Shown: piece after piece, positions 41,978 to 63,624 of the stretch
Position numbering within the stretch: the stretch's first letter is position 1
Layout: each line of letters begins with the position of its first letter
DNA from: Candidatus Omnitrophota bacterium
GTDB lineage: Bacteria; Omnitrophota; Gorgyraeia; Gorgyraeales; Gorgyraeaceae
DNA length: 64,000 nucleotides
NCBI GenBank assembly: GCA_030649895.1
Contig: JAUSEX010000031.1
Span: 2,620-66,619, forward strand
Direction: 5' to 3'
Program-made: the position numbers and the translations under genes
Notes under the pieces: generated by a model
What the model was told of the DNA's origin: nothing
Databases searched by the model: none
Seen by the model: the letters and a program-made list of their open reading frames with translations, nothing else

Positions 41978-42760
41978 ATGAACTTAATAGTCAGATTTAA
42001 AAAAATAATAGCTGAAAGACAGATTATCAGGGGCATGGTAATAAAAAATTTAAAGAGCAAATATATCGGCTCTATATCAGGGATCTTGTGGGCTGTTATA
42101 AATCCTTTGTTGATTATGCTGGTGATCACCTTTGTTTTTAGCCAGATAATGAAGACAGATATAAAGCATTTTCCATTATTGGTGTTAAGCGCGCTTTTAC
42201 CTTGGAATTTTTTTAATAATTCTATAAATGAATCCGCAGCTTCGATCAGCAGCAATGTCGATGTGTTAAGGCAATTTGTGATGCTTAAAGAGACTATCCC
42301 TATAGCTACGGTAATAACTAATCTTATAACTTTTTTATTTGGTTTTATAATTGTCCTGCCGGTTTTTATTATGTTTAATACAGGCATTGTAAATTATCTT
42401 ATCTTGCTGCCTTTTGTAGTGGTGCTACATTTTATTTTTACATTAGGGATCTCCATGCTTCTTAGTATAATAAATGTTTATTTTAAAGACTTGCCTCAGT
42501 TATTGAATATTTTTTTAATGTTACTATTTTGGCTTACGCCTGTATTTTATTCCATAGATATGATACCTCAAAAATACCACTGGCTTATTATTGCCAATCC
42601 GAGCGCATGTTATATTATTATTTACAGGGCGCTATTATATCAGGGTTTTAGCGGCGGCATATCTATATGGTTACTTGCGATTGGATTTGCTTTGATCAGC
42701 ATAATAAGCGGGTATTTTTTATTTATGAAAAAAGAATCGGAAATCTTGAAATACGCGTAG
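41978..42760 (+). CDS. wzm: ABC-2 type polysaccharide exporter permease (Wzm/TagG-like)
   Basis: 260 aa, six TM helices, ABC-2 family pattern. Immediately upstream of the ATPase. Confidence 0.8.
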   Translation: MNLIVRFKKIIAERQIIRGMVIKNLKSKYIGSISGILWAVINPLLIMLVITFVFSQIMKTDIKHFPLLVLSALLPWNFFNNSINESAASISSNVDVLRQFVMLKETIPIATVITNLITFLFGFIIVLPVFIMFNTGIVNYLILLPFVVVLHFIFTLGISMLLSIINVYFKDLPQLLNIFLMLLFWLTPVFYSIDMIPQKYHWLIIANPSACYIIIYRALLYQGFSGGISIWLLAIGFALISIISGYFLFMKKESEILKYA

Positions 42761-42783
42761 ATAAAAACGATGGATTGAATATC

Positions 42784-45597
42784 ATGAGCATGATATCTTT
42801 AAAAGATGTTGGTTTAAAATATAAGGTAGAGTTTAAAGAAAACGGCAGGATTACAACCGAGGATTTTTTGGCGCTTAAGGATATAAATATAGAGATAGAA
42901 AAAGGGGAAATCGTAGGGATCATAGGTGAAAATGGGGCTGGGAAAACCACGTTACTTAAAATAATAGCCAGGATGCTGGCGCCTGATAAGGGTACAGTTG
43001 ATGTAAATGGCAAAGTCTCTATGCTTATGGAAATAGGGTCTGGTTTTCACAGGGAGCTTACAGGCAGAGAGAATATATATACTATTTCTTCATTATTTGG
43101 CTTTTCAAAAGCGGAGATAGAGGCGAAATATGGTGATATAGTGAAGTTTGCAGCTATAGGCAGGTTTATAAATGCGCCGGTAAAGATTTATTCTCAAGGC
43201 ATGTATATGCGCCTGGCTTTTGCTATAGCGATACATGTGAACCCCGATATCTTGCTGGTGGATGATATATTTGCGGTCGGAGATGTTTATGCGCAGCGTA
43301 AATGTATCAATAAAATGTTTGAACTTAAAGAGCAGGGCAAGACTATTATTTTTGTTAACCAGGATATAGAAATACTAAAAAGATTCTGCACAAAGGGTAT
43401 ATTCTTAAGGGAAGGCAGCGTTGTTAAGGAAGGACCTATAGATAAAATATGCGATTACTATATGGAATCAGTGGGTGAAAAAAAAGGAATTGCTATTTTG
43501 GAAAAAGGTTTATTAGGCGTAGTTTTTAATAATGGCAGACTTATTCTAAGGTGGAAGAACAACGCTATTACATGTGGTTTTGGCGGATATACTATGGTTT
43601 TAACTTCAGGCCGTCAATATCTGTCAAATACTGCTGACTGGGAAGTCCAAAAGTCTAAGACAGGCGATGAAATCATAGCCATAGGTAAATGGCCTGATAC
43701 CCCGCTTATTCAATGCTGGAAAATAGTTTTCTTAAGTGAGAGAGAATTTTCATGGGAAATAACGATGCAAATGTTTGAAAATATTGCTATAGAGAAATTT
43801 TCTGCAGATATTATATTTATAGAGGGATATAAAAAGTGGTTTACTTTGGACAGTGAAACTAGTTTCCCGGAGGCTTTTGTTCACGATGCAGAATGGGAAT
43901 ACAATCTAGTCAGTGATTCTGCCAATAAGCTAATCGGCTTAAAAGGCAATAATCAAATATCAGGCTTTTTACCCGTGGTAATTTTAGACAGGTCTAATGA
44001 TAATATGGAAATAAAATGTGAAGTTTGTAATACAGGCGCCGATATAGGAGGCAGGGCAGTCCGATATCAGTCTCTTTGTCAGAAGCCGGGATTTGATTAT
44101 ATCCAGGATAAATACAGGTGTTTCCTTAGCACGGTAAGAATATTTGAATCTGAAGAAGGCGAGGGTTTAAAAAATTATATTAGTTGTACAAAACAAATAA
44201 TAAGTGAATCCTACATTATACGCAAAGGCTTAATAAGCCTTTTTTGCAAGGATCATAAGGTTGAAATTTATTATCGAGATAAATTACTTACGAGCGGAAT
44301 AGGTTTAAATGTGAGATTTAAATGCCAAGATAAAAATTACAGCCCTCTTGATGGGCAATGGGTTATGCACAAAAAAAATAATGAAGAAATAGCAATAACT
44401 ATTTCTTGGGGCGGGAAATCGCCACTTATTCAAACATGGAAGCTGAAATTGCAGGATGATAATGTTGTAGCATGGGAAATAGAGATGGAGATTAATGAAA
44501 AGACAGTGATAAGAAATAAGGAAGTAGAGCTGACACTTAATGAAGAATATGAGAAATGGATAACTGAGAATGAAAGAGGAGATTTTAAAAAAGCAGAGAA
44601 ACAAGGCAGCACAGTGCTTTTAAATAAATATATAAATGAACATATCGGCGTAGAGGGCATATCTAAAGTGGATGGGTTAGTTTTGCCTGGTGTAATATTT
44701 AATTATAAAGACGCGGCCCCCAAGGTTTCTTACATTTCTAAAATAAAAGAAGGGATAATGGCTACAAAATTACGGTATACGGAAATAGACTGTAAGGATA
44801 ATTTTTATATTCCATCAGGAAGGTATGAATATTTTAAAGGCGAGATAAAAGTGATAGCTGATCAAGAAAAAAGCCAGGATTTGATAAATAAAAAATCGGC
44901 TATTGGTAAGAAGGAATCATTAAACAGAATAGAACTTGGCAGCGTGTCGTTAGTTTTTGATAACGGAAGAGGCAGGATTTTTTGGAACGGTACAGAATTG
45001 ACAAAAGGATTAGGGCTGTACGCGTCTATTTTTTTTAAAGACGTATGGCATGATTCCTCTCAGGCTTTTTGGGAGGTTAAAAAGTTAGACCAAAAAAGAT
45101 TATCGGCTGTTGGTTATTGGCCTTGGCTGCCACTGATACAGACTTGGAAGATTTGTTTAGAGGATGAAAATACTGTTGTGTGGGATATAAAAAAAGAAAT
45201 TTGGGATGATGTTATTTTAAAAAGAGAACAGGTAAATCTTATGCTTTCGGATAACTATAAGGCATGGTCTGCTCATAAACGAATTCATGGAAAGTTTCCC
45301 AGTACATTTAGCAAGCATAGTGGTATTTTTTGGGATAGACTGTGGTGTGGGGATACTACCTCTCCTATTAGAGTTGAAAAGCAGAGGATTGGAAATAGGA
45401 TTTTAGGTGGGCAGCTTTTACCAGCTGTTGCTCTTGATTGTTCAATAGATTGTCCTGCCCGCTATTTCATTATTGAAAATACGGATGATTTATTTGAAGC
45501 CCGGGTTCTACAGTGTGAATTTGATTCGAATCAGAAATGCGGCGTTAATAAAGATAGAGATAAATATTTTGAAGGGCGAATCAAGGTAAATATTTAA
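42784..45597 (+). CDS. wzt: ABC transporter ATP-binding protein (Wzt/TagH-like) with ~690-aa C-terminal extension made of three novel bipartite modules
   Basis: Start placed at ATG 42784 (MSMISLKDVGL) after the permease stop. Walker A GENGAGKTT, ABC signature YSQGMYMRLAFA, Walker B ILLVDDIFAVGD. The C-terminal repeats start near 43510, 44230 and 44940. Confidence 0.85.
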   Translation: MSMISLKDVGLKYKVEFKENGRITTEDFLALKDINIEIEKGEIVGIIGENGAGKTTLLKIIARMLAPDKGTVDVNGKVSMLMEIGSGFHRELTGRENIYTISSLFGFSKAEIEAKYGDIVKFAAIGRFINAPVKIYSQGMYMRLAFAIAIHVNPDILLVDDIFAVGDVYAQRKCINKMFELKEQGKTIIFVNQDIEILKRFCTKGIFLREGSVVKEGPIDKICDYYMESVGEKKGIAILEKGLLGVVFNNGRLILRWKNNAITCGFGGYTMVLTSGRQYLSNTADWEVQKSKTGDEIIAIGKWPDTPLIQCWKIVFLSEREFSWEITMQMFENIAIEKFSADIIFIEGYKKWFTLDSETSFPEAFVHDAEWEYNLVSDSANKLIGLKGNNQISGFLPVVILDRSNDNMEIKCEVCNTGADIGGRAVRYQSLCQKPGFDYIQDKYRCFLSTVRIFESEEGEGLKNYISCTKQIISESYIIRKGLISLFCKDHKVEIYYRDKLLTSGIGLNVRFKCQDKNYSPLDGQWVMHKKNNEEIAITISWGGKSPLIQTWKLKLQDDNVVAWEIEMEINEKTVIRNKEVELTLNEEYEKWITENERGDFKKAEKQGSTVLLNKYINEHIGVEGISKVDGLVLPGVIFNYKDAAPKVSYISKIKEGIMATKLRYTEIDCKDNFYIPSGRYEYFKGEIKVIADQEKSQDLINKKSAIGKKESLNRIELGSVSLVFDNGRGRIFWNGTELTKGLGLYASIFFKDVWHDSSQAFWEVKKLDQKRLSAVGYWPWLPLIQTWKICLEDENTVVWDIKKEIWDDVILKREQVNLMLSDNYKAWSAHKRIHGKFPSTFSKHSGIFWDRLWCGDTTSPIRVEKQRIGNRILGGQLLPAVALDCSIDCPARYFIIENTDDLFEARVLQCEFDSNQKCGVNKDRDKYFEGRIKVNI

Positions 45598-46656: not shown

Positions 46657-46679
46657 TAGATTTTTATCTAAAAATTATT

Positions 46680-47696
46680 ATGCAAGATAAGCCATTTAAT
46701 TTTTTAAAATCTCAAAGCAGCCTTTTAGATATACGAAAACCGGCATTTTGCTGTATAGGTATTTCTACAGGGTGCATTTTGAAATGCAAGATGTGTTCAG
46801 TGTGGAAAACCAAATATGTTGCTATGCCACAAGAACCTACTATGGATGAATGGTTTCGTTTTATCGAGCTTGCTGCCGGCTTAACGGAAAATTCTATCGA
46901 GATAAACGTTTCCGGAGGAGAGCCTTTATTAGATGAAAGAAATTTAGCGTTAGTTAAATTTAGCGCCAAAAAAGGACTTTCAACTTCTATGCCTACCAAC
47001 GGTTTTCTCATAGACAAAGAGATGGCTTATAAAATAGCAGATAGCGGACTAAGCGCGATAGGCATATCTTTGGATGGTATCAAAAAAGATACGCATGATT
47101 TTTTAAGAGGCGTAGAGGGATGCCATGACAAAGCAATGCAGGCGATTGACTATCTTGATAGATGCTGCGGAAATATAGGAATAGGAATTTTGACAACTAT
47201 ATCAGAGAAGAATATCGATGAAATTATTGAGCTAACCAGGTGGGCTAATGAAGACAATAGAATCGAAACTATTATTTTTCAGGCGGTAACTCAGCCATTT
47301 AATACTCCTTTTGACGATGAATGGCATGATAAAAGCGAATATAGTTTTCTCTGGCCGAAAGACATCAGAAAGACCCATGTCTTATTAGACGAGATAATAA
47401 AACTAAAAAAAATGGCGTATAAGATATCCAACACAGTTTCTCAATTGGAAACTTTTAAGAAGTATTTTGAAAACCCCTTGGGATTTATTAAAAAAGATGC
47501 GTGTAATGTGGATTTTTATATGAATATAAATCAATTTGGAGATGTATATATGTGTCCAAGAAAAAAAGCTGTAGGGAATATAAGAAAATGCACTCCAAAA
47601 GATATGTGGTATTCAGAAGGCGCAAATCAAATGAGAGAAGAAATAAAAAGCTGCAGAGTAAATTGTCATCATGTATTAAATTGTTGTTATGAATGA
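46680..47696 (+). CDS. radical SAM/SPASM-like protein, paralog 2
   Basis: 338 aa. FCCIGISTGCILKCKMCSVW, SGGEPLL, KSCRVNCHHVLNCCYE. Confidence 0.8.
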   Translation: MQDKPFNFLKSQSSLLDIRKPAFCCIGISTGCILKCKMCSVWKTKYVAMPQEPTMDEWFRFIELAAGLTENSIEINVSGGEPLLDERNLALVKFSAKKGLSTSMPTNGFLIDKEMAYKIADSGLSAIGISLDGIKKDTHDFLRGVEGCHDKAMQAIDYLDRCCGNIGIGILTTISEKNIDEIIELTRWANEDNRIETIIFQAVTQPFNTPFDDEWHDKSEYSFLWPKDIRKTHVLLDEIIKLKKMAYKISNTVSQLETFKKYFENPLGFIKKDACNVDFYMNINQFGDVYMCPRKKAVGNIRKCTPKDMWYSEGANQMREEIKSCRVNCHHVLNCCYE

Positions 47697-50600
47697 GGAT
47701 GGTGGTTATCGTATGAACAGCTGGACAGCAAAATTTAAGAATAAAATATATGCGTTCGAAAAGATATTCAAGCAAAAAAGGACAAGCTTTCGCACGATAT
47801 ATAATGGTACCTTAAGGCTCTTTCTGGATGAAAATAATAGGCTTAGGATATATTATAAAGACAATGAGCTTACAAAAGTCTCCGGTTTGAATACTAACAT
47901 ATTATCCGAAGCTAATTGGCATAGTTCGCTTGACTCTATAGTTAATAATATAGAAAAACTATCTTCTGAAGAGATGATTATCCATTTGAAGCATAGTCAG
48001 CTTCCTCTTGTGCAAGCTTGGCATCTGAAATGCAACTCAGAAGATACGCTTAGCTGGGAAGTAAATATGCATATAAAAAAACCGTTACGTATAGATTGTA
48101 TGAAAGCATCCTTGTTCTTATCCAAAGCTTATGAGGATTGGATAATTCCTGCCAAACAAGATACATTTCCTCCTTTTTCTGATTTTCAATGGAAAAGTAT
48201 GAATTCTTTTGAAGATAAAGCCGGCTTCATAGGCCTTGCTTCTTCCTTAGAAGAATTTCCTGGCATGTCTCTTAAAAGTTCTGATAACTCAAAAGCTTCA
48301 TTAATAATCCAAAATACCGATATAAATCTTTCTTCCCGTGTTCTTGAAATTCAATGCGAAGATAAAAAAGAATTCTACCAGCCCGGCACCTACTCTTTTC
48401 TTAAGGCCACAATACAGTTTTATCCTGATAAGAATGTTTTAAAAAATATTCTCAAAGAAATAAAGGAGCAGGAACAAAAGAAGCAGGACGAGCTAATGCT
48501 TCAAGAAGAAGAGCGCCTCAAAAAAGCCAAAGAGGAAGACCATAAGCTCCGCACCCTTCAAAGCGGCCCCTTTAGGCTCCATATAGACCAGCATAACAGG
48601 TTTCACCTCTATTATAAAGAACAAGAGCTTACCAAAGGAGTTGGTATTAATATGGGAATACTCTCTGAAGGTAATTGGTATGCTGCCTGTGATTCCAGAA
48701 TTGAAATAAAAAGGCCGTCTTCTAATAAGATGCTTGTACAGTTTATTTACAATAAGCTTCCTGTTATTTGCTCATGGCAGATAGATTTTAAGCCGGAAGG
48801 CGTGTTTACCTGGGTCATTGATATATCTTTTAAAGAATCTCTACGCATAGATCGAAGCAATGTTTCTTTATTCTTATCCAAATCTTACGATAATTGGATT
48901 GCTCCTCCTGAAGAAGGGAGTTTCAGCTCTTCATTCGGCCCAGGGTGGCAAAGGATGAATACTCACAAAGACAATGCTGAATTTACCGGATTATATTCTT
49001 CTTCAGAAGAATTTCCGGATGTGATTTGTAAAAGCTCAAAGGATTCAAAAGCTTCATTAATAATCCAAAATACCGATATAAATCTTTCTTCCCGTGTTCT
49101 TGAAATTCAATGCGAAGATAAAAAAGAATTCTACCAGCCCGGCACCTACCCTTTTCTTAAGGCCACAATACAGTTTTATCCTGATAAGAATGTTTTAAAA
49201 AATATTCTCAAAGAAATAAAGGAGCAGGAACGAAAGAAGCAGGAACAGGAACAAAAACGGCTTCAAGAATTAGAAAGGCTTAGACAGGAAGAAGAAAGGC
49301 TTAAGCAGGAACAGGAACAGAAGAAACAGGAAGAAAATCACAAACAGAATGAATTTAAAAAAATATACATGTTATTAAAAGAAGACGAAAAAGATTTTCC
49401 ATTAATCGAGGATAATGATGTGTATGTATATGGAGACTGCGAAGACTTGCATGACAAAATTGCTTCTCAACAAGGAAATTTTAATAATCTCATTTCAAGA
49501 ATAGAGACAGCCAAAAAAAAAGGTTTAAAGGTTAATATAAAAATAGGCGTATCGAAATTTAATTTTTTTAAGCTAGACACTATTATTCAATTTTATTCTA
49601 GATTGCTAAATAGCCGCATAGACCTGCGTTCTGTTTCTTTGAATTTTTTACCCGCAAAGAATATTTTTTATTATTTCGCCGAGTATATAAAACAATTAAA
49701 TATGCAGCTCGAATCGAGTAATATAGGGCTTTTCTTAAGAGACAAAGAGTTGCCCGGCCTTCTTTGGGCTATTTCTAGCCAAGCAGATCAATATAATGAG
49801 AAAGATTTATTGCGATTATTGGGAGTTATAACGGAGCACGCCTTTATTGGACCTCAAACTATCGTTCTAGATATTAATCATAGCTGTAATACTAATTGTA
49901 TACATTGTTGGATCCATACGCCAAAGCGTAAGGCCTCTCTACAGCTTAGTAATTTAAAGATGGACATCTCTTTATATAAAAATATTATTGATGATGCGGC
50001 AAATCTTTTATGTGACGAGATTATCATACAGGGAGATGGCGAGCCTCTTCTAGACGATAGATTTTTAGAAATGACCTGTTATGCGCGGGATAAGGGATTA
50101 AAAGTTTTATTTTTTACGAATGGCATACTTTTGGATAAAGAAAAAGCCGGTAGAATAATAGACTTGGAAGTAAACGAGATATTCTGCAGCCTTCCTGCAG
50201 GAACAGATAAGACTTATGCCTTGGTTAATCCGGGGCATTCAAAGGATACCTTTCATCATATAGCAGCGAATTTAAAAAATTTAAGCTTGATGAGAAAAAA
50301 ATCAGGAAAAAACAAACCATTATTACAAATGTCCCATGTTATCCATAACCTGAATTATCATGAGTTAGAAGAAATGGCTGAATTGGACGCTTATATAGGA
50401 GCGGATAAAACAAGATTTTATCTTGCCCGCTTAGATGAGAATATAGATTTTTTAAAATTAAGCCCTAGACATATTAAGATAATAAAAGAATCCCTAAAAA
50501 AGACAGCGCCCTATTTAAAAAGCAAGCACGTAGAATTACAAGACAATATATATTTTCAGCTAGAAAACTATAACTCTACAACAGGTTATTGGTCTAAAAA

Positions 50601-50910
50601 TGCGTTTTTAAAGTCTGGCTGTCCGGTGGGATGGTTTTTTTCTTTAATATTAGCCAAGGGTGAAGTAAGCATTTGCTGTCATTTGCGCGTTGTTGATCAT
50701 TTAAAACTCAAATCTTTTGAAGATATATGGAAATCTGAATCTTATAATAAATTCAGAAGTCAAGCCAAGTATTTAGCAAAAAACAAAAATATTGTTTTTA
50801 ACAATAATATGAAACTATATGATGAATTTTGCAATCATTGCGATACTCATCAGGTTATTTTAAGGATTTATGACTTGCTTCAAAAGTATAATCTGCATAA
50901 ATTTTTATAA
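47689..50910 (+). CDS. giant multidomain radical SAM/SPASM protein (2 novel bipartite modules + E/K/Q-rich coiled coil + rSAM core)
   Basis: 1073 aa. The N-terminal half has two copies of the Wzt-type module. A KEQEQKKQ.../RLQELERLRQEEERLKQEQEQKKQEE linker follows. The C-terminus carries CNTNCIHC (CxxxCxxC), GDGEPLL, and a Cys-rich tail (CPVGW...ICCH, CNHCD). Confidence 0.8.
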   Translation: MNEDGGYRMNSWTAKFKNKIYAFEKIFKQKRTSFRTIYNGTLRLFLDENNRLRIYYKDNELTKVSGLNTNILSEANWHSSLDSIVNNIEKLSSEEMIIHLKHSQLPLVQAWHLKCNSEDTLSWEVNMHIKKPLRIDCMKASLFLSKAYEDWIIPAKQDTFPPFSDFQWKSMNSFEDKAGFIGLASSLEEFPGMSLKSSDNSKASLIIQNTDINLSSRVLEIQCEDKKEFYQPGTYSFLKATIQFYPDKNVLKNILKEIKEQEQKKQDELMLQEEERLKKAKEEDHKLRTLQSGPFRLHIDQHNRFHLYYKEQELTKGVGINMGILSEGNWYAACDSRIEIKRPSSNKMLVQFIYNKLPVICSWQIDFKPEGVFTWVIDISFKESLRIDRSNVSLFLSKSYDNWIAPPEEGSFSSSFGPGWQRMNTHKDNAEFTGLYSSSEEFPDVICKSSKDSKASLIIQNTDINLSSRVLEIQCEDKKEFYQPGTYPFLKATIQFYPDKNVLKNILKEIKEQERKKQEQEQKRLQELERLRQEEERLKQEQEQKKQEENHKQNEFKKIYMLLKEDEKDFPLIEDNDVYVYGDCEDLHDKIASQQGNFNNLISRIETAKKKGLKVNIKIGVSKFNFFKLDTIIQFYSRLLNSRIDLRSVSLNFLPAKNIFYYFAEYIKQLNMQLESSNIGLFLRDKELPGLLWAISSQADQYNEKDLLRLLGVITEHAFIGPQTIVLDINHSCNTNCIHCWIHTPKRKASLQLSNLKMDISLYKNIIDDAANLLCDEIIIQGDGEPLLDDRFLEMTCYARDKGLKVLFFTNGILLDKEKAGRIIDLEVNEIFCSLPAGTDKTYALVNPGHSKDTFHHIAANLKNLSLMRKKSGKNKPLLQMSHVIHNLNYHELEEMAELDAYIGADKTRFYLARLDENIDFLKLSPRHIKIIKESLKKTAPYLKSKHVELQDNIYFQLENYNSTTGYWSKNAFLKSGCPVGWFFSLILAKGEVSICCHLRVVDHLKLKSFEDIWKSESYNKFRSQAKYLAKNKNIVFNNNMKLYDEFCNHCDTHQVILRIYDLLQKYNLHKFL
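48290..48477 (+). repeat. intragenic near-identical direct repeat, copy 1 (copy 2 at 49046-49233)
   Basis: The two 188-nt copies differ at 2 positions (756-bp period). Flanking module sequence has diverged to ~50% amino-acid identity. Confidence 0.85.
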
Positions 50911-50922
50911 AGGATTTTAGCT

Positions 50923-53115
50923 ATGAAAATAGTCCTTGCTAATTTGCCATGGAATAGTTTTGGAAAAGTAGGGGTTCGGGCAGGTTCGAGATGGCCGCAT
51001 TTAAAAGGCCGTACTGAAAAGCATTATTTACCTTTTCCTTTTTTCTTGGCGTATACGGCAGCTTTGCTTAAAGAAAATGATTTTGACGTGAAGTTGATTG
51101 ATGCTATTGCCGAGAAAAGATCGTATAAGGGGTTTTTGGGCGACATAAAAAAACTTAAGCCGCGCATCCTTATCTGCGAAACTTCAACGGTTACCTTGGA
51201 GCATGATATAAAATTTTTAGAAAAGATAAAGAAAGAGGTTTCGGGTATTTTTTTTGTAATTTGCGGCCCTGATATCAATATAAGGCAACCTGCTTTTCTT
51301 GAAAAATATAGATTTATAGACGCTGTCCTTGCCGGAGAATACGAATTTACAGTTCTTGACTTGGTCAGGTGCATCCGGGAAAATAAGGAGTTAAATAATA
51401 CGCCGGGCATTATATATCGCGATTCAAATAATGTTAAGGTTAATCCATTCCGCCCCCTGATTAACCTGGATAAATTGCCATGGCCATTGAGAAAAGGGCT
51501 GCCTATGGGCATGTATAATGATACGCCAGGGGATATGCCTATACCGTCAGCGCAAATGCTTGCCAGCCGCGGTTGCCCTTATAGATGCAAATTCTGTCTT
51601 TGGCCTCAAGTTATGTATCAAAGCAATAGTTACAGGGCCAGGGATATAATTGACGTGGTGGATGAAATGGAATATTTAATAAAAGAGATGCATTTTAAAT
51701 CAATATATTTTGATGACGATACTTTCAATGTGGGCAAGGGTCGGATGTTAAAGTTGTGCGATGAGATAAAAAAGCGGAAGCTGGATATTCCTTGGGCAAT
51801 AATGGCAAGGGCTGATTTGATGGATAGGGAAATTTTAGAAAAAATGAGAGAGACAGGATTATTTGCGGTTAAGTATGGAGTAGAATCTGCGTCACAAGAA
51901 CTTTTGGATAATATAAATAAGAATATGGATATTAAGAAAACAGAAGAAATTATAAGGCTTACAAAGAAGCTGGGCATTAAAACTCATTTGACGTTTACAT
52001 TCGGCCTTCCCGGCGAAACTAAAGAAACTATACGAAAAACAATAGATTTTGCGTTAAGATTAGACCCTGCTACTATCCAATTTTCCATAGCTACGCCTTT
52101 TCCAGGGACATCTTTTTATGAAGAGATGATGGCGAAAGGCCATATTATTTCCGAAAATTGGACAGAGTATGACGGGAATCATAAAAGCGTCATAGGTTTA
52201 CCTGATACCACAAAAAAAGACCTTGAATTTGCCATAAGGTCTGCTTATAAAGAGTGGGCTGTTCATTGTTCTAGAAGAAATACATTTAAGAAATTAGGTT
52301 ATTACCAGTTAATGTCAAAATCATTAAAGGTGCATGGAATTTTTATAACATTTTTTAAGATTATAAGATTTTTAACACGATATTTGTTTCTATATCTCAA
52401 AGAAAAAATATTTTTTAAAAAAGAGATAGAAAATAAGACAAAAGAAAATGGCCTTAAAATCGGCAGATTAATATTAATATTTAATGGCAACGGCCTGGTA
52501 TTGTATTGGGATGATATGCGGTTGACGAAAGGAGAAGGTTTCGCAAGTTTATTTAGTTTTCAAGGAAAATTATCGCAAAAACTTTTTAATCAATGTTGGA
52601 ATTTTGAAAGGGTAAATAATAATGAGCTGTTACTTACAAGGAGCCAAGATGGCGTTGGTATGGATGAGACATGGAGGCTGAAGATTATAGATGAAAAGCA
52701 GATTGATTGGGAGATAGAGATTAATTTAAAGAATGAAATTGAATTTAGCGCCAAAAAGGCCATGCTTATTTTGTCAAGCAGGTATCGTACGTGGATAGAT
52801 AGCTGGGGCGAAGGCAGGTTCTATCCTATGACAGATTATAGAAATGTAGAATTAAGAAATCCTAGCACCGGTTTTATAGGGTTAAGAGGGCGCAAAAAAC
52901 TAAAAGGCCAACTGCCAACTATCTTGCTGGAATTATCAGGAAATAATGGCAGCTATTTACCTTTTATCAAAAATGCCAAGTCGATTTTTGGCGCCAGGGT
53001 GCTTGAGGCGCAGATAAAAAACTTCAACGGGCATGGTGAAAAATATTTGCCTGGCGCATATAAATTATTTTCTGGAAGAATAAAGATTGTAGAAGAAGAT
53101 TTTAGCAAGAGATAA
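50923..53115 (+). CDS. B12-binding radical SAM protein fused to a C-terminal novel bipartite module
   Basis: 730 aa. N-terminal 470 aa is paralogous to the 19904 gene (CPYRCKFC). The C-terminal ~220 aa (from GRLILIFNGNGLVLYWDD...) matches the Wzt/giant-rSAM module. Confidence 0.85.
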   Translation: MKIVLANLPWNSFGKVGVRAGSRWPHLKGRTEKHYLPFPFFLAYTAALLKENDFDVKLIDAIAEKRSYKGFLGDIKKLKPRILICETSTVTLEHDIKFLEKIKKEVSGIFFVICGPDINIRQPAFLEKYRFIDAVLAGEYEFTVLDLVRCIRENKELNNTPGIIYRDSNNVKVNPFRPLINLDKLPWPLRKGLPMGMYNDTPGDMPIPSAQMLASRGCPYRCKFCLWPQVMYQSNSYRARDIIDVVDEMEYLIKEMHFKSIYFDDDTFNVGKGRMLKLCDEIKKRKLDIPWAIMARADLMDREILEKMRETGLFAVKYGVESASQELLDNINKNMDIKKTEEIIRLTKKLGIKTHLTFTFGLPGETKETIRKTIDFALRLDPATIQFSIATPFPGTSFYEEMMAKGHIISENWTEYDGNHKSVIGLPDTTKKDLEFAIRSAYKEWAVHCSRRNTFKKLGYYQLMSKSLKVHGIFITFFKIIRFLTRYLFLYLKEKIFFKKEIENKTKENGLKIGRLILIFNGNGLVLYWDDMRLTKGEGFASLFSFQGKLSQKLFNQCWNFERVNNNELLLTRSQDGVGMDETWRLKIIDEKQIDWEIEINLKNEIEFSAKKAMLILSSRYRTWIDSWGEGRFYPMTDYRNVELRNPSTGFIGLRGRKKLKGQLPTILLELSGNNGSYLPFIKNAKSIFGARVLEAQIKNFNGHGEKYLPGAYKLFSGRIKIVEEDFSKR

Positions 53116-53119
53116 TGAT

Positions 53120-54379
53120 ATGAAAAATATTTTCTATAATTGCACTAACGTTTTTAGAATTAAAAGGCTTTTTGGGAACTATATTGATACTATTAGTGTT
53201 TTTGACGGCTTATACGCATATAGAGGCCCTGGTTTCGCACAGATAGATTTAACGAACAACTGCAATAATGATTGCATAGGCTGTTGGTGTAATTCCCCTC
53301 TTTTGGAGGAAAAAAAGATTGATCCTGAGATAAAAAAACAAAGCCTTCCTTTCAAAAGGGTTATAAAGTTGATAGATGAGCTCTATAAAATGGGGGCTAG
53401 CCACATATATTATGCGGGTGGAGGAGAACCATTTATGCATCCTCAGATTATGGATATTCTCAGATATACAAAAAAGAAAGGGTTTACATGCTATGTTAAT
53501 ACGAATTTTACTTTAGTTGATGAAAAGGCCGTGAAAGAGTTAGTGGGTTTAAAAATAGATCATTTGACCGTGAGCGTTTGGGCAGGAACGCCGCAAGTTT
53601 ATTCTACCACTCACCCTAGTAAAAACGAAGATACGTTTTATAAAATAAAAGAAATGTTGAAGTTGCTAAATACGATTAAGCATAAATATCCTATAATAAA
53701 ACTTTATAATGTTATTTTCAATATGAACTATCATAGCATAGAAACAATGGTTGAGTTTGCTGCCCAAACTGGTTCGGAAACAGTAGAATTTACCGTTATA
53801 GATACGATACCAGGAAAAACGGATAAATTATTACTAAACGACAAAGAGGCGCGCAGTTTGCTTGATGACTGCGGAAGATTAAAGGAAAAATACGGAGATT
53901 TTAAAAATAATGTTCAATTGCTGGGATTTGAGCAATTTATGCGCAGGATTTCAAATATTGATGCTGTATCTGCGGAATATGATTCAAACATTATAGGGAA
54001 GATACCTTGCTATGCAGGGTGGGCATTTGTAAGGATATTAGCGGATGGCAATGTTAATTCATGCCTTAAGTCGCATAGATTTCCGGTTGGAAATATACTT
54101 GGCCAGGATTTTCGTAAGATTTGGAACGGTTCATTGCAGAGGCGTTTTAGGGAGAAAACAGCGGAGTTTAAACAAGGAGATTCTTTCTTTTCCTTGATCG
54201 GCAATGACCCTGATTCTAATATGGGTTGCTATAAAAGCTGTGATAATATAGGACATAACATGAATATGCACGGCAAATTTACTTCACTTAATAAATTAGA
54301 GAGAAATGCCTTAAAAGGCATAGCTAATATCATGAAAACCATAAGGAAAATCAAGGAGGCGGCAAATGGCAGAAACTAA
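53120..54379 (+). CDS. radical SAM/SPASM-domain protein
   Basis: 419 aa. CNNDCIGC (CxxxCxxC), AGGGEPFMH, and a C-terminal Cys cluster (CYAGW...CLKSH, CYKSCDNIGH). Confidence 0.8.
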   Translation: MKNIFYNCTNVFRIKRLFGNYIDTISVFDGLYAYRGPGFAQIDLTNNCNNDCIGCWCNSPLLEEKKIDPEIKKQSLPFKRVIKLIDELYKMGASHIYYAGGGEPFMHPQIMDILRYTKKKGFTCYVNTNFTLVDEKAVKELVGLKIDHLTVSVWAGTPQVYSTTHPSKNEDTFYKIKEMLKLLNTIKHKYPIIKLYNVIFNMNYHSIETMVEFAAQTGSETVEFTVIDTIPGKTDKLLLNDKEARSLLDDCGRLKEKYGDFKNNVQLLGFEQFMRRISNIDAVSAEYDSNIIGKIPCYAGWAFVRILADGNVNSCLKSHRFPVGNILGQDFRKIWNGSLQRRFREKTAEFKQGDSFFSLIGNDPDSNMGCYKSCDNIGHNMNMHGKFTSLNKLERNALKGIANIMKTIRKIKEAANGRN

Positions 54380-54537
54380 TTTACAAAAGTTTGTTAAACA
54401 TTGCAAGGCAGGCGGGTTATTTTATGCTATTAGTAGAGGCGTTAAATATGTAACTTGGCGCAATAAATGTAAAAAAATGGGTATAGACTGTGGAAAATTC
54501 AGCAGAGAAAGATAGCTGTATTAAAAAAAGGTGATTT

Positions 54538-55587: not shown

Positions 55588-55610
55588 ATTATATACGAAA
55601 GGAATTTTAA

Positions 55611-56669: not shown

Positions 56670-56670
56670 A

Positions 56671-57717: not shown

Positions 57718-57731
57718 ATATCCTTGACCAG

Positions 57732-58739
57732 ATGAACCAGGACTTTCTCGTTCGCAAGCCTAAATACTGCTGCTGGGTTCTTAATTATCGCTGTATGTTA
57801 AGATGCAAGATGTGCTACATCTGGAATATCAAAGACGATAAAAGCCAGGAAACTACCATGGAGGAGAAAAAGAAATTTGTCAAATCCTTGCGCGGCATGG
57901 TAGGCCCTGATTTTGAATTTCACTTATCAGGCGGGGAGCCTTTAATGACAGAGGGGGTTTTGGATTTAGTTAGTTTTATTGCTGATGAAGGATATAAGAC
58001 AAATATGGTTACAAATGGCTTTCTTATCGATGAAAAAATGGCAGAAGATGTTATGAATTCTAAACTGGGGAGCGTTACTATTTCATTAGATGGAATAAAT
58101 CCAGATACCCATGATTATATCCGAGGCGTAAATGGCAGCTATTCCAGGATAATGGAAGCTATCGAATATCTGGATAGGTCTAGAAAAGATAAAAGCCCGA
58201 AAATCTCCATGTTGACTGTTATAATGGAACGCAATTTAGATGAGCTGCTTGAGCTTGCAGAATGGGTTCAACAGGATAAGAGGTTAGAGATGATAAGCTT
58301 TCAGGCAATAAACCAGCCTTTTTGCGAAGATATGGATAAAGAATGGTTCAGAGAAAATAAAAATAGTTTTCTATGGCCTCAGGATAAAGCAAAAACCAGC
58401 TTTATTATGGAGAGGCTTAGAGAATTAAGGTTAAAAGGGAATAAAATAGGGAATCACCATAATCATTTTTTGCATTTCAGGGAATATTTTAAGGATCCGA
58501 ACACATTTTTAAAGAAGATAAAATGCAATCTTGGAGATTATGAGTTTCATGTTGATCCGTACGGGAAGATGTTTTTCTGCTCTTTTACAGATTCGATGGG
58601 AAATATAAAAAAAGATGATATAAATAAAATCTGGTATTCGCCGGAAACAAAAAAAATAAGGCAGGATGTGTATAATTGCCGCAGAAACTGCCATATAATG
58701 ATTAATTGTTTTTATGAAGATGAAGCCTGCATTACGTAA
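57732..58739 (+). CDS. radical SAM/SPASM-like protein, paralog 6
   Basis: 335 aa. YCCWVLNYRCMLRCKMCYIW, SGGEPLM, YNCRRNCHIMINCFY. Confidence 0.8.
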   Translation: MNQDFLVRKPKYCCWVLNYRCMLRCKMCYIWNIKDDKSQETTMEEKKKFVKSLRGMVGPDFEFHLSGGEPLMTEGVLDLVSFIADEGYKTNMVTNGFLIDEKMAEDVMNSKLGSVTISLDGINPDTHDYIRGVNGSYSRIMEAIEYLDRSRKDKSPKISMLTVIMERNLDELLELAEWVQQDKRLEMISFQAINQPFCEDMDKEWFRENKNSFLWPQDKAKTSFIMERLRELRLKGNKIGNHHNHFLHFREYFKDPNTFLKKIKCNLGDYEFHVDPYGKMFFCSFTDSMGNIKKDDINKIWYSPETKKIRQDVYNCRRNCHIMINCFYEDEACIT

Positions 58740-59982
58740 AACATTTTTTATAACAGTGCCAGCCGTATTGATTTTTCTCATCGTGCTGGAGTTATGCTTG
58801 AGGATGTGCGGGTATTTATATATACAGCGTCACAATCATGAAGCGCATACCAAAACAACGGAATTAAGTAAGGATAAACTCAGGATTCTTTGCTTGGGAG
58901 ATTCTTTTACTTTTGGCGTGGGGTCTAGTCCTGAAAACAATTATCCAAAGCAGTTAGAAAGAATATTGCAGGAAAATATCTCTGAGAAAATAAGCGTTAT
59001 TAATGGGGGCCGCCTTGCCAATACTTCATCGTTACTCTTAAAAAATTTACAAGAAAATATTAATAAATATTCTCCGTCTATCATAGTTGTAATGATAGGA
59101 ATGAATAATAGTTGGAACTTAGAAGGCAGCAGTTATTTTTTGTTAAATAGCAGCATAGGTTTACTGGAAAGACTGGAAAGAATGTCAAGCTCTTTCCGTA
59201 TATACAAATTATTAAAGATAGGATGGGTTAATTTTAAATATAAAATAGATGGAAATAAGAAAATAGCTTCTGCTAATAATTCGATTCGGAAAATAAAACC
59301 TGAATCATTAGAGTTATCCGCTATTGGCAATGAATTATTCTTAAAAGGGGAGTATATCCTGGCTATAGAGAAGTTGCAGGAGTCATTAAAAATAGATAAC
59401 AACAACTACGATGCGTATTTATTTTTAGCAGGTATGCGAAATACTCAGAAAGAATTTCAATTAGCTGAAAAAGAGATATGGCAAGCTATTAATTCGATAG
59501 ATGAATGGGACGATCATCTTATCTGCACAGTGCTTCTAGCCATCAATAGGCTTGGCGATAAGAAAGAAGCAGAATTAGTAAAACTGAAATCGTATTTTAA
59601 AAGTAAATATTATGGGAATAAAAAGAGCAGGCTACTTAAGATAATAGAGGCAGATTTAGATTTTTCAAAAAAAGAAACCATATCTAAAGTGCTGGAATAT
59701 GATTTGGAACGGATAGTTAGGTTGGCTAGGGAGAACAGAGTAACGCTTATTTTGCAGACTTATCCAAGGAGCATACTTGAGAATATTACTATAGAAACAA
59801 TAAGCCGAAAATATAATAGTTGCTTAGCAAACAACGAAATAATATTTAAAGAAAAGGCTCGAAGCGATTTTTTTGTTGCCGATGGCCATTGTAATGAGAA
59901 AGGATATGAATTAATTGCGGAAAATGTGTATGATATTTTGGTTAAAGAAGAAATGTTACCTAGAAAAAGAACAGGAGAATAG
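58714..59982 (+). CDS. membrane-anchored SGNH/GDSL-family hydrolase with TPR-like C-terminal region
   Basis: 422 aa. N-terminal TM, then GDSFTFGVG (GDS-x block I) and later SGNH blocks. Overlaps paralog 6 by 26 nt. Confidence 0.6.
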   Translation: MKMKPALRKTFFITVPAVLIFLIVLELCLRMCGYLYIQRHNHEAHTKTTELSKDKLRILCLGDSFTFGVGSSPENNYPKQLERILQENISEKISVINGGRLANTSSLLLKNLQENINKYSPSIIVVMIGMNNSWNLEGSSYFLLNSSIGLLERLERMSSSFRIYKLLKIGWVNFKYKIDGNKKIASANNSIRKIKPESLELSAIGNELFLKGEYILAIEKLQESLKIDNNNYDAYLFLAGMRNTQKEFQLAEKEIWQAINSIDEWDDHLICTVLLAINRLGDKKEAELVKLKSYFKSKYYGNKKSRLLKIIEADLDFSKKETISKVLEYDLERIVRLARENRVTLILQTYPRSILENITIETISRKYNSCLANNEIIFKEKARSDFFVADGHCNEKGYELIAENVYDILVKEEMLPRKRTGE

Positions 59983-59986
59983 AATA

Positions 59987-61045: not shown

Positions 61046-62012
61046 GAGCCCAAAAACCTGTCTTCTGACTGTAACAAATAATTGTGTTTTGCGCTGCAAA
61101 ATGTGCCATCTATGGCAGCTTAATACCGCAGAAAATGAAGTTAATATAGATGACTGCAAAAGATTAATAGATTCTTTTAAGGGGTTTGGGCCAGAACCTG
61201 TAGAGGTGCATATTATTGGAGGAGAATCCTTGATTAAAAAAGGAGTATTAGACTTGATCTCGCATATAAGCAACAAAGGATCTAGGACTGTTATGACTTC
61301 ATGCGCATATACTATAGATGAAACAATGGCAAAGGCAATTGCCGGATCTGGTTTAAATATGTTAAATATATCCATAGATAGCTTAAACCCATTAGTTCAT
61401 AATTTTTTAAGAGGGCGAGATGATTCTTTTCAGCGCGCAATGAGCGCAATTGATTATCTGAGTAAGTATAAAGATAATAGACTGAGATTAGGTATCAACA
61501 CTGTTATTTCAGCAAAGAATTTAGATGATATAGTTGGATTAAGCGAGTGGACACTAGGTAATAAAAATCTGGATTCTATTTATTTTATGGCAGTAATGAG
61601 GCCTTTTGGCTCTAACCTGGACTGGCATTGGTTTAAAAAAGAGGAATATAAGGATCTCTGGCCTTTGGATTATTCTAAAGTTGAACTAGTATTAGATAAA
61701 CTCATTACTTTAAAAAACAAAGGCTCTAAGATAGGGAATCCTGCAAGTCAATTAGAGGTCTTTAAGACATATTTTAAAAATCCTTTCGATTTTATAAAAG
61801 TCAATAGGTGCAATGTTTCTGAGCAAGCCCTTAATATAAACGCATTAGGCGATGTTTATCTTTGTTTTTTTATGGAAAAATTGGGCAATATCAAAGAACA
61901 TAATGTGGCGCAGCTTTGGAATTCCGATAAGGCGCAAAAGATCCGCGCCCAGATGCGCTCCTGCAGGAATAATTGCGAATTAGTAGTGAATTGTTATTAT
62001 GAGGAAAAATAA
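61035..62012 (+). CDS. radical SAM/SPASM-like protein, paralog 8
   Basis: 325 aa. KTCLLTVTNNCVLRCKMCHLW, IGGESLI, RSCRNNCELVVNCYY. 11-nt overlap with paralog 7. Confidence 0.8.
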   Translation: MLNKSPKTCLLTVTNNCVLRCKMCHLWQLNTAENEVNIDDCKRLIDSFKGFGPEPVEVHIIGGESLIKKGVLDLISHISNKGSRTVMTSCAYTIDETMAKAIAGSGLNMLNISIDSLNPLVHNFLRGRDDSFQRAMSAIDYLSKYKDNRLRLGINTVISAKNLDDIVGLSEWTLGNKNLDSIYFMAVMRPFGSNLDWHWFKKEEYKDLWPLDYSKVELVLDKLITLKNKGSKIGNPASQLEVFKTYFKNPFDFIKVNRCNVSEQALNINALGDVYLCFFMEKLGNIKEHNVAQLWNSDKAQKIRAQMRSCRNNCELVVNCYYEEK

Positions 62013-63624
62013 TCGTAGAGATACTAATTTTATAGAGTCTAAAATGAGAAGAAGGAATTATTTATTTTTAATATTAATAATATTAAGTTTTCATGTCTTC
62101 CTAAACTATCAAGTATTGAAGAAAAGTAATATTATAAGAATGGATGATGAAGGAGGGACTATAATAGCAGGCTTGAATTGTTACAATATAATATTCTTGG
62201 ATCATAGCATTAAGCTTGTTAATAAATTAGGTTTTATTTTAGGCCTGCATGGTCAATGCCATCCTCGTTTTGTTGAACTCGCAGAAGCGCTTTCTTGGAA
62301 GGCGCTTAATTTATTTAAAATTTTAGACATAACTTCAATGATTTTAGTAGTTAATGCTATATTTTTTATTATTTTATTAGGCAGTGTATATGGAATTGGT
62401 TCAATAGTTTATAATAGAAATGTAGGCATATTATCTGCAGCGCTGGTTTCAATGTTTCCTTTGGTATTTGGACATTCAAGATTAGCTATGCGAGATTTTC
62501 CTTTGATGTGCATGGTTTCTCTGGGTTTTTATCTGCTTCTGAAGGCCGGTAAATTTAGTTCTAGTTTGTATAGCGTATTATCTGGCGTAGTGTTTGGTTT
62601 AGCGCAATTGACCAAAGAAACTGCTTTTATTTTTTTTCTTACCCCATTAATTTATTATTTTACTGGATCTTACTCGTTGGACAATAAAAAGAAGGTGTTG
62701 CGAAATTTTATTGTTACTTTGGCTTGTTTTTTAATTTTAACCGGAGTTGTATATTTCAGATTAGAAAATCTGCACGCGTTTAAAATATATTTTGGGAAAA
62801 CTTGTTATATCAGGAATTATCCCAATTTTTTTTATTATTTAAAAAATTTTATAGAAATTACAGGGCCATTTATTTTGATTATATCGTTGCCTTTGTTTGT
62901 TCAATACTTGGTTAACATTAAAAGAAGAGAGAAAATTCTATTTGTTTGGTTTATTATCCCGATTATATTGTTTAGCATTACCCCAAATAAAGCTATCAGA
63001 TTTCTTTTCCCCATATTGCCGGCTTTTGCCCTAATCGTAAGCAGCGAAATAGCCAATATTAATTTATCTAAAGAATTTAAAAAGGTATTTTATATTATGC
63101 TGATTTCAATCTCAATACTTCAATATGCGTTTTTCAATGCTGGAATTTTAGATACAAAATTTAAAAACCCGTATTTTGAAGCAGGCATCTTGTCTGTTAG
63201 AAAAGATAAATATTTGCCTGAATATATGAGATTATTGGATGTTTTTAAAAAAGAAGCAAAAAATAATAATGTCTCGGGAAATAAGAATGTAGTTTTTTTA
63301 TTCAATATTCGGGAGATCTATTGGCCGTTTTGGCTGGATACTTGGGTATATAAAATGCCTTTCAATGTATCTAATTCACTGCTGGTAGATGAGGTAGATG
63401 TGATTAATACCTACCATGTTGATTGGGATAAAGAAATTTTGAAAGCGGATTATATTGTTAATAAAACAGGCTTTAAAGAACGGCAAGATTATCGGAATCA
63501 TATTTTAGATGGGTTGGAAAAAGGTTTTATTAAATATAAAGATAGATTTGAATTAATCGCTGACATTAAGCTATTGTTTGATAACTCTGCGGTATACGTG
63601 TATAAAAAAGTTAGTCACAATTGA
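62002..63624 (+). CDS. GT-C membrane glycosyltransferase (GT39/ArnT/PMT_2-like)
   Basis: 541 aa, ~12 TM helices. MFPLVFGHSRLAMRDFPLMCMVSLGFYLL loop region resembles ArnT/PMT-family mannosyltransferases. Confidence 0.6.
   Translation, partial: RKNNRRDTNFIESKMRRRNYLFLILIILSFHVFLNYQVLKKSNIIRMDDEGGTIIAGLNCYNIIFLDHSIKLVNKLGFILGLHGQCHPRFVELAEALSWKALNLFKILDITSMILVVNAIFFIILLGSVYGIGSIVYNRNVGILSAALVSMFPLVFGHSRLAMRDFPLMCMVSLGFYLLLKAGKFSSSLYSVLSGVVFGLAQLTKETAFIFFLTPLIYYFTGSYSLDNKKKVLRNFIVTLACFLILTGVVYFRLENLHAFKIYFGKTCYIRNYPNFFYYLKNFIEITGPFILIISLPLFVQYLVNIKRREKILFVWFIIPIILFSITPNKAIRFLFPILPAFALIVSSEIANINLSKEFKKVFYIMLISISILQYAFFNAGILDTKFKNPYFEAGILSVRKDKYLPEYMRLLDVFKKEAKNNNVSGNKNVVFLFNIREIYWPFWLDTWVYKMPFNVSNSLLVDEVDVINTYHVDWDKEILKADYIVNKTGFKERQDYRNHILDGLEKGFIKYKDRFELIADIKLLFDNSAVYVYKKVSHN

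Follow-up and report, generated by a model that had tools for sequence, protein, structure and literature searches.

The ATP-binding cassette (ABC)-transporter-dependent O-antigen pathways of E. coli O9a, Raoultella/Klebsiella O12 and Aquifex aeolicus combine WecA-type priming, cytoplasmic assembly on polyprenyl phosphate and export by Wzm and Wzt, and a classical O-antigen Wzt carries a C-terminal carbohydrate-binding domain of ~150 amino acids (aa). Mycobacterial galactan and arabinogalactan are made with WecA, the UDP-galactopyranose mutase (UGM) Glf, the Wzm-Wzt pair Rv3781/Rv3783 and the glycosyltransferases of fold C (GT-C) Emb and Aft, and to our knowledge this pathway does not use radical S-adenosylmethionine (SAM) chemistry. 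Radical SAM chemistry on carbohydrates has been described in a small number of small-molecule pathways, those of aminoglycosides, nucleoside antibiotics and the hopanoid head group. Their enzymes, AprD4, BtrN, DesII, BlsE, GenK and, in the formation of the bacteriohopanepolyol cyclitol ether, HpnJ, number one or two in each pathway and work on the rings of soluble nucleotide-sugars, of aminoglycosides or of a single lipid head group. We know of no case in which a dense set of radical SAM enzymes tailors an exported polysaccharide. Here, we describe a locus in a stretch of 64,000 nucleotides (nt), referred to as the window, from a Candidatus Omnitrophota genome (GCA_030649895.1, contig JAUSEX010000031.1) in which WecA-like priming, glycan-assembly and Wzm/Wzt genes are followed by eleven radical SAM enzymes. 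With a probability of roughly 0.7, it encodes an ABC-transporter-dependent envelope-glycan pathway in which a lipid-linked glycan is tailored by the radical SAM battery on the cytoplasmic side, before or during export. The pathway is best developed in Candidatus Omnitrophota and is apparently an undescribed variant: no description was found in the searchable literature, subscription-only papers lying outside its coverage, which agrees with an earlier note, made from the DNA letters alone, that knew of no characterised pathway of this kind.

A module shared by the exporter and two radical SAM enzymes

The earlier note had claimed that the exporter ATPase and two radical SAM enzymes share a module, and BLASTP and iterated hidden Markov model (HMM) searches bear this out. 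The ~225-aa module occurs three times in Wzt, twice in a 1073-aa radical SAM protein (the giant) and once at the C-terminus of a B12-domain radical SAM enzyme, and nowhere else in the genome (Table 1). The Wzt ATPase domain is, as judged by similarity, of bona fide O-antigen type, with 213 bits to Aquifex Wzt (8dku), followed by TarH/TagH (TarH 189 bits) and mycobacterial RfbE. The alignment with the 404-aa Aquifex protein spans only aa 33-253 and ends at the ATPase domain; the three tandem modules (2-6 in most relatives) stand where a classical Wzt has its ~150-aa domain and, as in pathways with a substrate-sensing Wzt, this extension could plausibly recognise the finished polymer. Orthologs of the whole Wzt protein are 933-940 aa long.

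Pfam assigned no family to the module or to the N-terminal half of the giant, the sole match being a sub-threshold chance hit to Candida_ALS_N. An AlphaFold2 model built from an alignment of 12 module copies (A1) reached a pLDDT of 83.5 and a pTM of 0.81, and consists of a long helix followed by an all-beta domain. VIA gave Z scores of 17.8 to an FpGalNase domain (9awt), 15.3 to galactose mutarotase (3mwx) and 15.1 to aldose 1-epimerase (3nre), each over 203-212 aligned residues at a root-mean-square deviation of 2.8-3.5, and nearly all of the top 50 VIA matches are carbohydrate-active proteins. Foldseek (E 1e-6, TM 0.55-0.63) and language-model neighbours (Apionate_lact_N and GH123_N) complete the comparison, and the modelled fold is a galactose-mutarotase-like beta-supersandwich. 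Across the 12 copies the only invariant residues are W114, W154 and F163; no His or Glu is invariant, which suggests a binding rather than a catalytic domain. The fold is that of carbohydrate enzymes, and a sugar is the candidate ligand.

An exhaustive profile search found 640 cluster representatives of the module family. Among the best 150 of these, 86 are a Wzt ATPase with 2-6 modules and 10 are a GT-C protein with modules, and the remaining architectures include modules with a radical SAM domain and B12-domain radical SAM enzymes with modules. The GT-C fusions, which are relatives of the GT-C protein of the locus and in which hydropathy counts 8-12 segments (the count does not settle on which side of the membrane the modules lie), resemble mycobacterial Emb and Aft with their C-terminal carbohydrate-binding domains. 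Two open frames from another Omnitrophota class contain ~11 and ~19 tandem modules (G181:C178:30244-37620, 2746 aa, and G193:C60:2817-15272, 4452 aa) and may be related to the giant proteins that have been described from the phylum.

Every named homologue of the ~340-aa radical SAM paralogs or of the module proteins belongs to Candidatus Omnitrophota. The paralog family is present in 12 of 41 close relatives, always as arrays of up to 15 members, and in 17 of 301 genomes sampled across the phylum. In the neighbourhood check proposed in the earlier note, 13 of the 14 array-bearing Omnitrophota genomes examined, which span several families and more than one class, have module genes on the contig of the array and no more than ~5 kb away from it. 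The gene order is repeated in GCA_028716965 and GCA_041643295, in the latter including GT4-WecA-FAD-Wzm-Wzt, and in two more distant relatives Wzm-Wzt is followed by radical SAM-SPASM proteins.

Gene fusions link the same parts more directly. In an Omnitrophota protein of 1856 aa (P0084, RKY36779.1), the ATPase, five modules, the pre-domain of the giant, a radical SAM domain and SPASM form one chain, encoded after WecA, the FAD protein and Wzm; a second protein (P0166, 1217 aa) is built in the same way. The 419-aa radical SAM/SPASM enzyme of the locus (rS419) belongs to a family that extends outside Omnitrophota, with orthologs at 45-73% identity in 79 loci when contigs were scanned with an rS419 alignment. 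On a 2.2-Mb Desulfatiglandales contig, a GT4 glycosyltransferase is fused to an rS419-type radical SAM/SPASM enzyme in one 816-aa open reading frame (ORF; L061:4726-7176), with Wzt, GT4, a phosphodiesterase and two sugar-nucleotide epimerase/dehydratases as neighbours. In Ca. Saelkia tenebricola, a 1928-aa ORF (L051:2560-8346) joins a B12-domain radical SAM enzyme (54% identity) to an rS419-type enzyme (57% identity). These fusions and neighbourhoods, from at least two phyla, are the strongest argument that the enzymes act on the exported glycan. The proposal in the earlier note of an undescribed system that modifies and exports one polymer gains support from all the comparisons made, namely those of the exporter type, the UGM-like flavoprotein, the module fold, the synteny, the Wzt and GT4 fusions and the literature. 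A Desulfobulbaceae contig has the order sulfotransferase, Wzm, Wzt, B12-domain radical SAM enzyme, polyprenyl synthetase (L086:4929-5852) and rS419; the synthetase between the two radical SAM genes keeps a role on the lipid carrier in play, as discussed below.

Radical SAM enzymes and their candidate substrates

As the earlier note had proposed, each ORF was searched with the relevant HMMs. Radical_SAM (PF04055) exceeds its cut-off of 29.5 in 11 ORFs within 45622-62012 (53-93 bits), including the 419-aa, 1073-aa and B12-domain enzymes singled out in that note, and the CX3CX2C motif is present in all 11. SPASM (PF13186) is above its cut-off in all ten enzymes without a B12 domain (23-43 bits). 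Twelve enzymes had been counted; the twelfth, at 19904, lies in a different cluster beyond housekeeping genes. The eight ~340-aa paralogs reported as one tandem run are all present and are split into blocks of two, four and two.

The eight paralogs share 34-52% mutual identity, and rS419 forms a second subfamily with the catalytic part of the giant (26% identity to giant aa 717-1026). One-to-one orthologs of rS3-rS6 in the relatives G008 and G014 are 68-88% identical, against ~40% to other paralogs, and rS7/rS8 orthologs are 65-89% identical. Where synonymous sites are unsaturated, the ratio of non-synonymous to synonymous substitution rates (dN/dS) is 0.04-0.07 for the radical SAM genes, which are intact and under purifying selection. 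Overall, each paralog of the window has an ortholog of its own in G008 and G014 (65-88% identity) and, where measurable, a low dN/dS, which argues that the paralogs are old, individually maintained and non-redundant. A pseudogene reading, which the earlier note had named as a refutation, was rejected on the same evidence, the 'stop inside' flags being terminal stop codons at match ends. No radical SAM protein reaches the cut-off of any curated NCBIfam family. Fusion of two ~340-aa paralogs into a single ~700-aa protein occurs in G014 and G008, several B12-domain radical SAM proteins have N-terminal tetratricopeptide repeat (TPR) domains, and a 41.7-kb G014 contig (C10) consists almost entirely of radical SAM genes; the loci concerned include L009:11538-13658, L014:4472-6547 and L010:8377-13967.

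SPASM enzymes are typically peptide maturases, as in the sactipeptide and ranthipeptide systems and with SkfB, CteB, SuiB and PqqE, and the solved structures closest to the paralogs are those of SkfB and CteB. A cluster for peptides that are made by the ribosome and modified after translation (RiPPs), in which the SPASM enzymes modify a 49-aa peptide or another peptide or protein and the ABC-2 transporter exports the product, would share with our locus the radical SAM core, the SPASM-type Fe-S domain and the small conserved ORF. This 49-aa ORF overlaps the end of rS419, has a strong ribosome-binding site (RBS), a highly conserved N-terminus and a conserved Cys, and is found in four genomes at 63-72% identity, invariably between the rS419 and rS3 orthologs and with a dN/dS of 0.13. 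However, it is conserved over its full length and has no variable core as expected of a precursor, and it is absent from the related arrays of G007 and G014 and from loci outside Omnitrophota. The motif KF..K..G..YA..K.FKY of this ORF is seen again in enzyme termini and linkers: in the helix before the module, at the N-terminus of rS419-like proteins from genomes without the ORF, and at the C-terminus of the HpnJ-like protein. The ORF may represent a docking or membrane helix that has become detached, and not a precursor peptide. A frameshifted rS419 C-terminus was also considered for this ORF and rejected, given that rS419 has its own C-terminal helix and the arrangement is kept in four genomes.

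The enzymes themselves also fit a RiPP cluster poorly. Only ~20-30 residues precede the cluster motif of the paralogs, the pre-domain of the giant is predicted to form beta-alpha-alpha repeats and no winged helix (AlphaFold2 model; the pre-domain was not fold-searched on its own), and the C-terminal domain of the eight paralogs conserves five cysteines (C275, C293, C326, C330 and C336), in addition to one N-terminal Cys. From 35460 to the contig end, no ORF has a Pfam match to a PqqD/RiPP recognition element, a leader peptidase or a transporter of the peptidase-ABC type; the transporter present is of the O-antigen Wzm/Wzt type, and the fusions are to GT4 and Wzt. We consider a RiPP-like cluster very unlikely, and glycan tailoring remains the preferred reading.

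The B12-domain enzyme has an HpnJ/AprD4-like B12/radical SAM part (aa 1-450; Radical_SAM 82 bits), a linker helix and one module. The B12-binding family PF02310 scores 29.3 bits, below its cut-off of 32.1, and 38.4 bits in the 477-aa protein at 19904. The HpnJ model scores 266.6 bits for the 730-aa enzyme and 397.5 bits for the 477-aa protein, both below the cut-off of 577.6, and the nearest solved structure to the 730-aa enzyme is AprD4 (6fd2, 96 bits), which has been reported not to use cobalamin. HpnJ and AprD4 rearrange or dehydrate sugar-type rings.

These matches also bear on the possibility that the enzymes tailor a lipid, either the polyprenyl carrier or a glycolipid anchor, through cross-links (C-C or ether), methylation, saturation or cyclisation, with Wzm/Wzt exporting the modified glycolipid. 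HpnJ, the named family closest to the B12 enzyme, is part of the hopanoid pathway, but the part of the HpnJ substrate that reacts is a sugar-derived head group and not the hopane, and squalene-hopene cyclase was not found in the 97.7%-complete genome. The paralogs score 55 bits against GDGT-MAS (7tol) and 40-58 bits against the Tes model, and homologues of further lipid radical SAM genes, Mss and Hbs, occur in Omnitrophota; the Tes scores, like those for HpnJ, are far below their cut-offs. Together with the Desulfobulbaceae polyprenyl synthetase, this is what speaks for lipid chemistry. Against it, the presumed targeting module has a carbohydrate-enzyme fold, the fusion partners are a glycosyltransferase and an exporter ATPase and include no lipid enzymes, and the giant's fold matches include BlsE and DesII. 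Lipid tailoring is, on balance, unlikely.

The giant consists of two modules, a partial module with a helix, a beta/alpha pre-domain of ~150 aa that begins at nt 49411, and a radical SAM/SPASM part at aa ~720-1073. An AlphaFold2 model of aa 575-1073 (pLDDT 90) ranks BlsE first (Z 25.8), followed by SkfB (23.3), DesII (22.0) and PqqE (21.6), so sugar and peptide enzymes are interleaved and the fold alone leaves the substrate unsettled. The eighth fold match is anSME (Z 18.8), and the tungsten-cofactor maturase model TIGR04317 (108-112 bits) and NirJ/AhbD-type models (80-116 bits) give weak matches; these would suit radical SAM proteins that mature other proteins, in the manner of anSME or of cofactor maturases, and are incidental to a glycan locus. 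Yet the scores are far below the curated cut-offs of 380-650, Pfam finds no sulfatase, tungsten enzyme or haem d1 gene in the locus, so that the anSME/sulfatase island which the earlier note had held out as a refutation is not what lies here, and incidental maturases would leave the shared module, the exporter and glycosyltransferase fusions and the Wzm/Wzt adjacency across phyla unexplained. We find this explanation scarcely credible and retain the glycan pathway.

Organisation of the locus and its surroundings

The earlier note had placed the start of the locus at 41978; the string begins at 36159, and it continues past the window end to at least position 71784 of the host contig (C17). All long ORFs from 36159 to the window end (64000) are on the + strand with short junctions (Table 1), and the enzyme order after Wzt is two paralogs, giant, B12 enzyme, rS419, four paralogs, SGNH protein and two paralogs. 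True junctions range from -26 to +47 nt, with a single 158-nt gap that is occupied by the 49-aa ORF. The longest-ORF starts of Wzt (42667) and rS7 (59915) overlap the preceding genes by 94 and 68 nt and are likely ORF-calling artefacts, the true starts being ATG 42784 for Wzt and ATG 59987 for rS7 (RBS AGGAG). Tight spacing and the single strand are the basis for proposing one long operon; a promoter-like TTGACA-17-TAAACT at 36119-36147, before GT4, is weak evidence, and promoter and terminator scans of the locus gave counts no higher than in shuffled sequence.

Table 1 Genes and module copies of the locus, with positions in the window
Feature	Position (nt)	Strand	Details
GT4-family glycosyltransferase	36159..37325	+	388 aa; first gene of string; Pfam Glycos_transf_1 110 bits, Glyco_transf_4
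Polyprenyl-phosphate sugar-1-phosphate transferase, WecA/MraY family	37322..38314	+	330 aa; PF00953 110.8 bits
UDP-galactopyranose-mutase-like flavoprotein	38330..39655	+	441 aa; PF01593, PF13450
NodU/CmcH-family carbamoyltransferase	39664..41511	+	615 aa; Carbam_trans_N 337 bits, Carbam_trans_C 233 bits
SxtJ-like small membrane protein	41508..41963	+	151 aa; PF19588 36.9 bits; 2 hydrophobic segments
Wzm, ABC-2 permease	41978..42760	+	260 aa; PF01061 50 bits
Wzt ATPase with three C-terminal modules	42784..45597 (ORF opens 42667)	+	~937 aa; ABC_tran (PF00005) 75 bits
Modules of Wzt	43459-44154, 44203-44865, 44881-45588		aa 265-496, 513-733, 739-974
rS1, rS2, ~340-aa radical SAM/SPASM paralogs	45622-46656, 46680-47696	+	Pfam; 41% mutual identity
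Giant, modules and radical SAM/SPASM	47689..50910	+	1073 aa
Modules of the giant	47731-48423, 48490-49179		aa 15-245, 268-497
B12-domain radical SAM enzyme with C-terminal module	50923..53115	+	730 aa
Module of the B12 enzyme	52333-53112		aa 471-730
rS419, radical SAM/SPASM	53120..54379	+	419 aa; Pfam
Basic 49-aa ORF	54366..54515	+	RBS AAGGAGG at 54354
rS3, rS4, rS5, rS6, radical SAM/SPASM paralogs	54538-55587, 55611-56669, 56671-57717, 57732-58739	+	Pfam
SGNH hydrolase/acyltransferase-like protein with TPR	58714..59982	+	422 aa; Lipase_GDSL_2 48 bits, TPR_11; hydrophobic aa 11-29
rS7, rS8, radical SAM/SPASM paralogs	59987-61045 (ORF from 59915), 61035-62012	+	Pfam
GT-C-fold membrane glycosyltransferase, PMT_2/ArnT-like	61999..63624	+	541 aa, polytopic; PMT_2 43 bits, Glyco_transf_22 32 bits
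Alpha/beta-hydrolase-like protein, 5' part	63672..64000, continues past window	+	348 aa

The GT4, WecA-like transferase, UGM-like flavoprotein, carbamoyltransferase, Wzm/Wzt, SGNH-TPR and PMT_2/GT-C assignments of the earlier note all stand by Pfam. An ABC-2 permease and a Wzt-type ATPase are encoded together, as in Wzm/Wzt glycan export, and a priming enzyme (PF00953) and a cytoplasmic glycosyltransferase (GT4) accompany them. Equivalog cut-offs of NCBIfam are not reached by Wzm or Wzt: the best match of Wzm is the galactan Wzm/RfbD model (60 bits, under cut-off). The transferase at 37322 scores 64 bits with the WecA model, also under cut-off, has ~10 hydrophobic segments and adjoins FAD-Wzm-Wzt in L023 and L026 as well. 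The closest solved relatives of the flavoprotein are the eukaryote-type UGMs 3uka, 3ute and 4dsg (E 1e-42, 150 bits), and because it is UGM-like, a furanose sugar in the polymer is suggested. WecA, a UGM-like mutase, Wzm/Wzt and a post-export GT-C, together with the galactan permease match, recall mycobacterial galactan; the differences are the eukaryote-type UGM, the lack of a GT2 galactofuranosyltransferase here and scores that all fall below equivalog cut-offs. The carbamoyltransferase reaches 140 bits with the NodU equivalog against a cut-off of 1000 and is followed, as in the SxtI/SxtJ pair, by an SxtJ-like membrane protein; the pair is common and accessory rather than system-specific, and the present locus is one of glycan and not saxitoxin synthesis. 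Glycosyltransferases of the locus are the GT4 upstream of the exporter and a GT9 and the GT-C downstream. The SGNH and GT-C proteins reach no curated NCBIfam family cut-off.

Hydropathy shows no hydrophobic segments in the radical SAM proteins or Wzt, a single N-terminal one in each of the SGNH and hydrolase proteins, and a polytopic GT-C. The SGNH-TPR protein is, because of this one segment, probably extracytoplasmic, and the pattern as a whole fits radical chemistry in the cytoplasm followed by extracytoplasmic finishing. The 6.7 kb of contig C17 beyond the window encode SGNH and SGNH-TPR proteins, a 111-aa ORF, GT9, a divergent radical SAM-SPASM protein (340 aa) and a TPR protein.

The enzyme at 19904-21337 (477 aa, HpnJ-like) is 30% identical to the 730-aa enzyme, so the paralogy claimed in the earlier note holds. 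It belongs to a separate glyco-cluster at 14165-24857, with two PMT_2-TPR transferases, GT2, a SAM methyltransferase, the B12 radical SAM enzyme itself, GT9 and a TPR protein; MiaB-like, CvpA, NIF3, DnaG and RpoD genes separate this cluster from the main locus. The host genome (1.68 Mb, 97.7% complete, from groundwater) has 59 Radical_SAM domain hits, grouped in several islands (contigs C47, which is L008, C19, C11 and C14). The C47 island contains PMT_2, a B12-domain radical SAM enzyme, radical SAM-SPASM and a methyltransferase-phosphodiesterase fusion.

A cassette of the B12-domain enzyme, rS3/4-type, giant-C-type and rS419 proteins, without the module, is also found on contigs L087, L088, L091, L081, L084, L090 and L098, the titles of which read Methanosarcinales, Nanoarchaeota, Woesearchaeota, 'archaeon' and Patescibacteria. 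These could be mis-binned Omnitrophota DNA or the result of gene transfer. Omnitrophota are an uncultured phylum of very small cells, and its one cultured member lives on methanogens, which is why the archaeal titles are worth mentioning.

A proposed route from priming to export

The gene content, domain folds, conservation, fusions and purifying selection are what the analysis shows; from them we infer, as follows, which substrate is used, that the module binds sugar, which reactions occur and in what order. A WecA-like enzyme would prime polyprenyl phosphate, GT4 would extend the chain, with a furanose sugar supplied by the UGM-like mutase, and the carbamoyltransferase would decorate it. Each of the soluble radical SAM enzymes, namely eight SPASM-type paralogs of ancient divergence, two enzymes resembling BlsE/DesII and one HpnJ/AprD4-like B12-domain enzyme, would catalyse its own, non-redundant radical reaction on sugar residues, candidates being oxidation, epimerisation, deoxygenation, decarboxylation, ring rearrangement and cross-linking. 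The module, common to the exporter and the enzymes, is proposed to bring them onto the same substrate by binding the polymer, and may make export conditional on finished tailoring. Once exported, the polymer would be completed or attached by the GT-C transferase and by the anchored SGNH and alpha/beta-hydrolase proteins. Known sugar enzymes are the nearest relatives of the B12 enzyme (by sequence) and of the giant's catalytic model (by fold); compared with the small-molecule pathways the locus differs in having at least 11 radical SAM enzymes in a putative exporter operon, polymer-binding-type modules and, in relatives, Wzt and GT4 fusions, with no named family cut-off reached. Compared with O-antigen pathways, the difference lies in the eleven radical SAM enzymes after the exporter, one of which is fused to it in some genomes.

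Several observations weigh against this pathway. SPASM enzymes act mostly on peptides, and the nearest solved relatives of the paralogs by sequence, over the radical SAM core only, are peptide enzymes (SkfB and CteB), SkfB also being the second fold match of the giant's catalytic model; in addition, the C-terminal domain of the paralogs retains just 5 of the 7 canonical SPASM cysteines, and a conserved 49-aa ORF sits within the array. Proteins not known to bind sugars, the YidC P1 domain and a virus capsid protein among them, likewise have the galactose-mutarotase-like fold, so a shared fold, itself modelled here, is no proof of sugar binding. No shared module was detected between Wzt and the radical SAM giants of the distant relatives G021 and G030. 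The single GT4 upstream of the exporter is few for polymer building, the classical Wzt carbohydrate-binding domain was not found (the extension is a different module), and no chain terminator (kinase/methyltransferase, including WbdD-like) has a Pfam match in the locus. The locus was found in groundwater DNA runs only, with no RNA run listed.

A more specific version, which we put forward tentatively, is a radical glycan tailoring line, in which sugar-binding supersandwich modules of a new family would dock a dozen radical SAM enzymes to a nascent lipid-linked polysaccharide. The enzymes would install diverse radical marks, and the exporter's modules would read these and so license export. It is perhaps somewhat short of an even chance that such a line operates in Omnitrophota and in simpler form in some Desulfobacterota and others, with the enzymes in some species fused to Wzt. 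The marks set along the polymer would be, for example, epimerised, deoxy, keto, ring-contracted or cross-linked sugars, at the same limited confidence. If true, it would give the first example of an ABC exporter coupled with radical SAM chemistry at the level of the polymer.

If the glycan pathway is real, it would provide a reservoir of new sugar-modifying radical enzymes, of which at least ten, mutually distant and individually conserved, lie in one putative operon. It would also introduce a new carbohydrate-binding-type domain family of 640 cluster representatives, for which there is no Pfam model, and a new logic for coupling tailoring to export, as seen in the Wzt-radical SAM fusions. With 59 domains, radical SAM genes account for an unusually high proportion of the 1.68-Mb genome. 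The pathway would likewise bear on the cell surface of Omnitrophota, whose surface polymer probably helps to determine host contact and resistance to phages.

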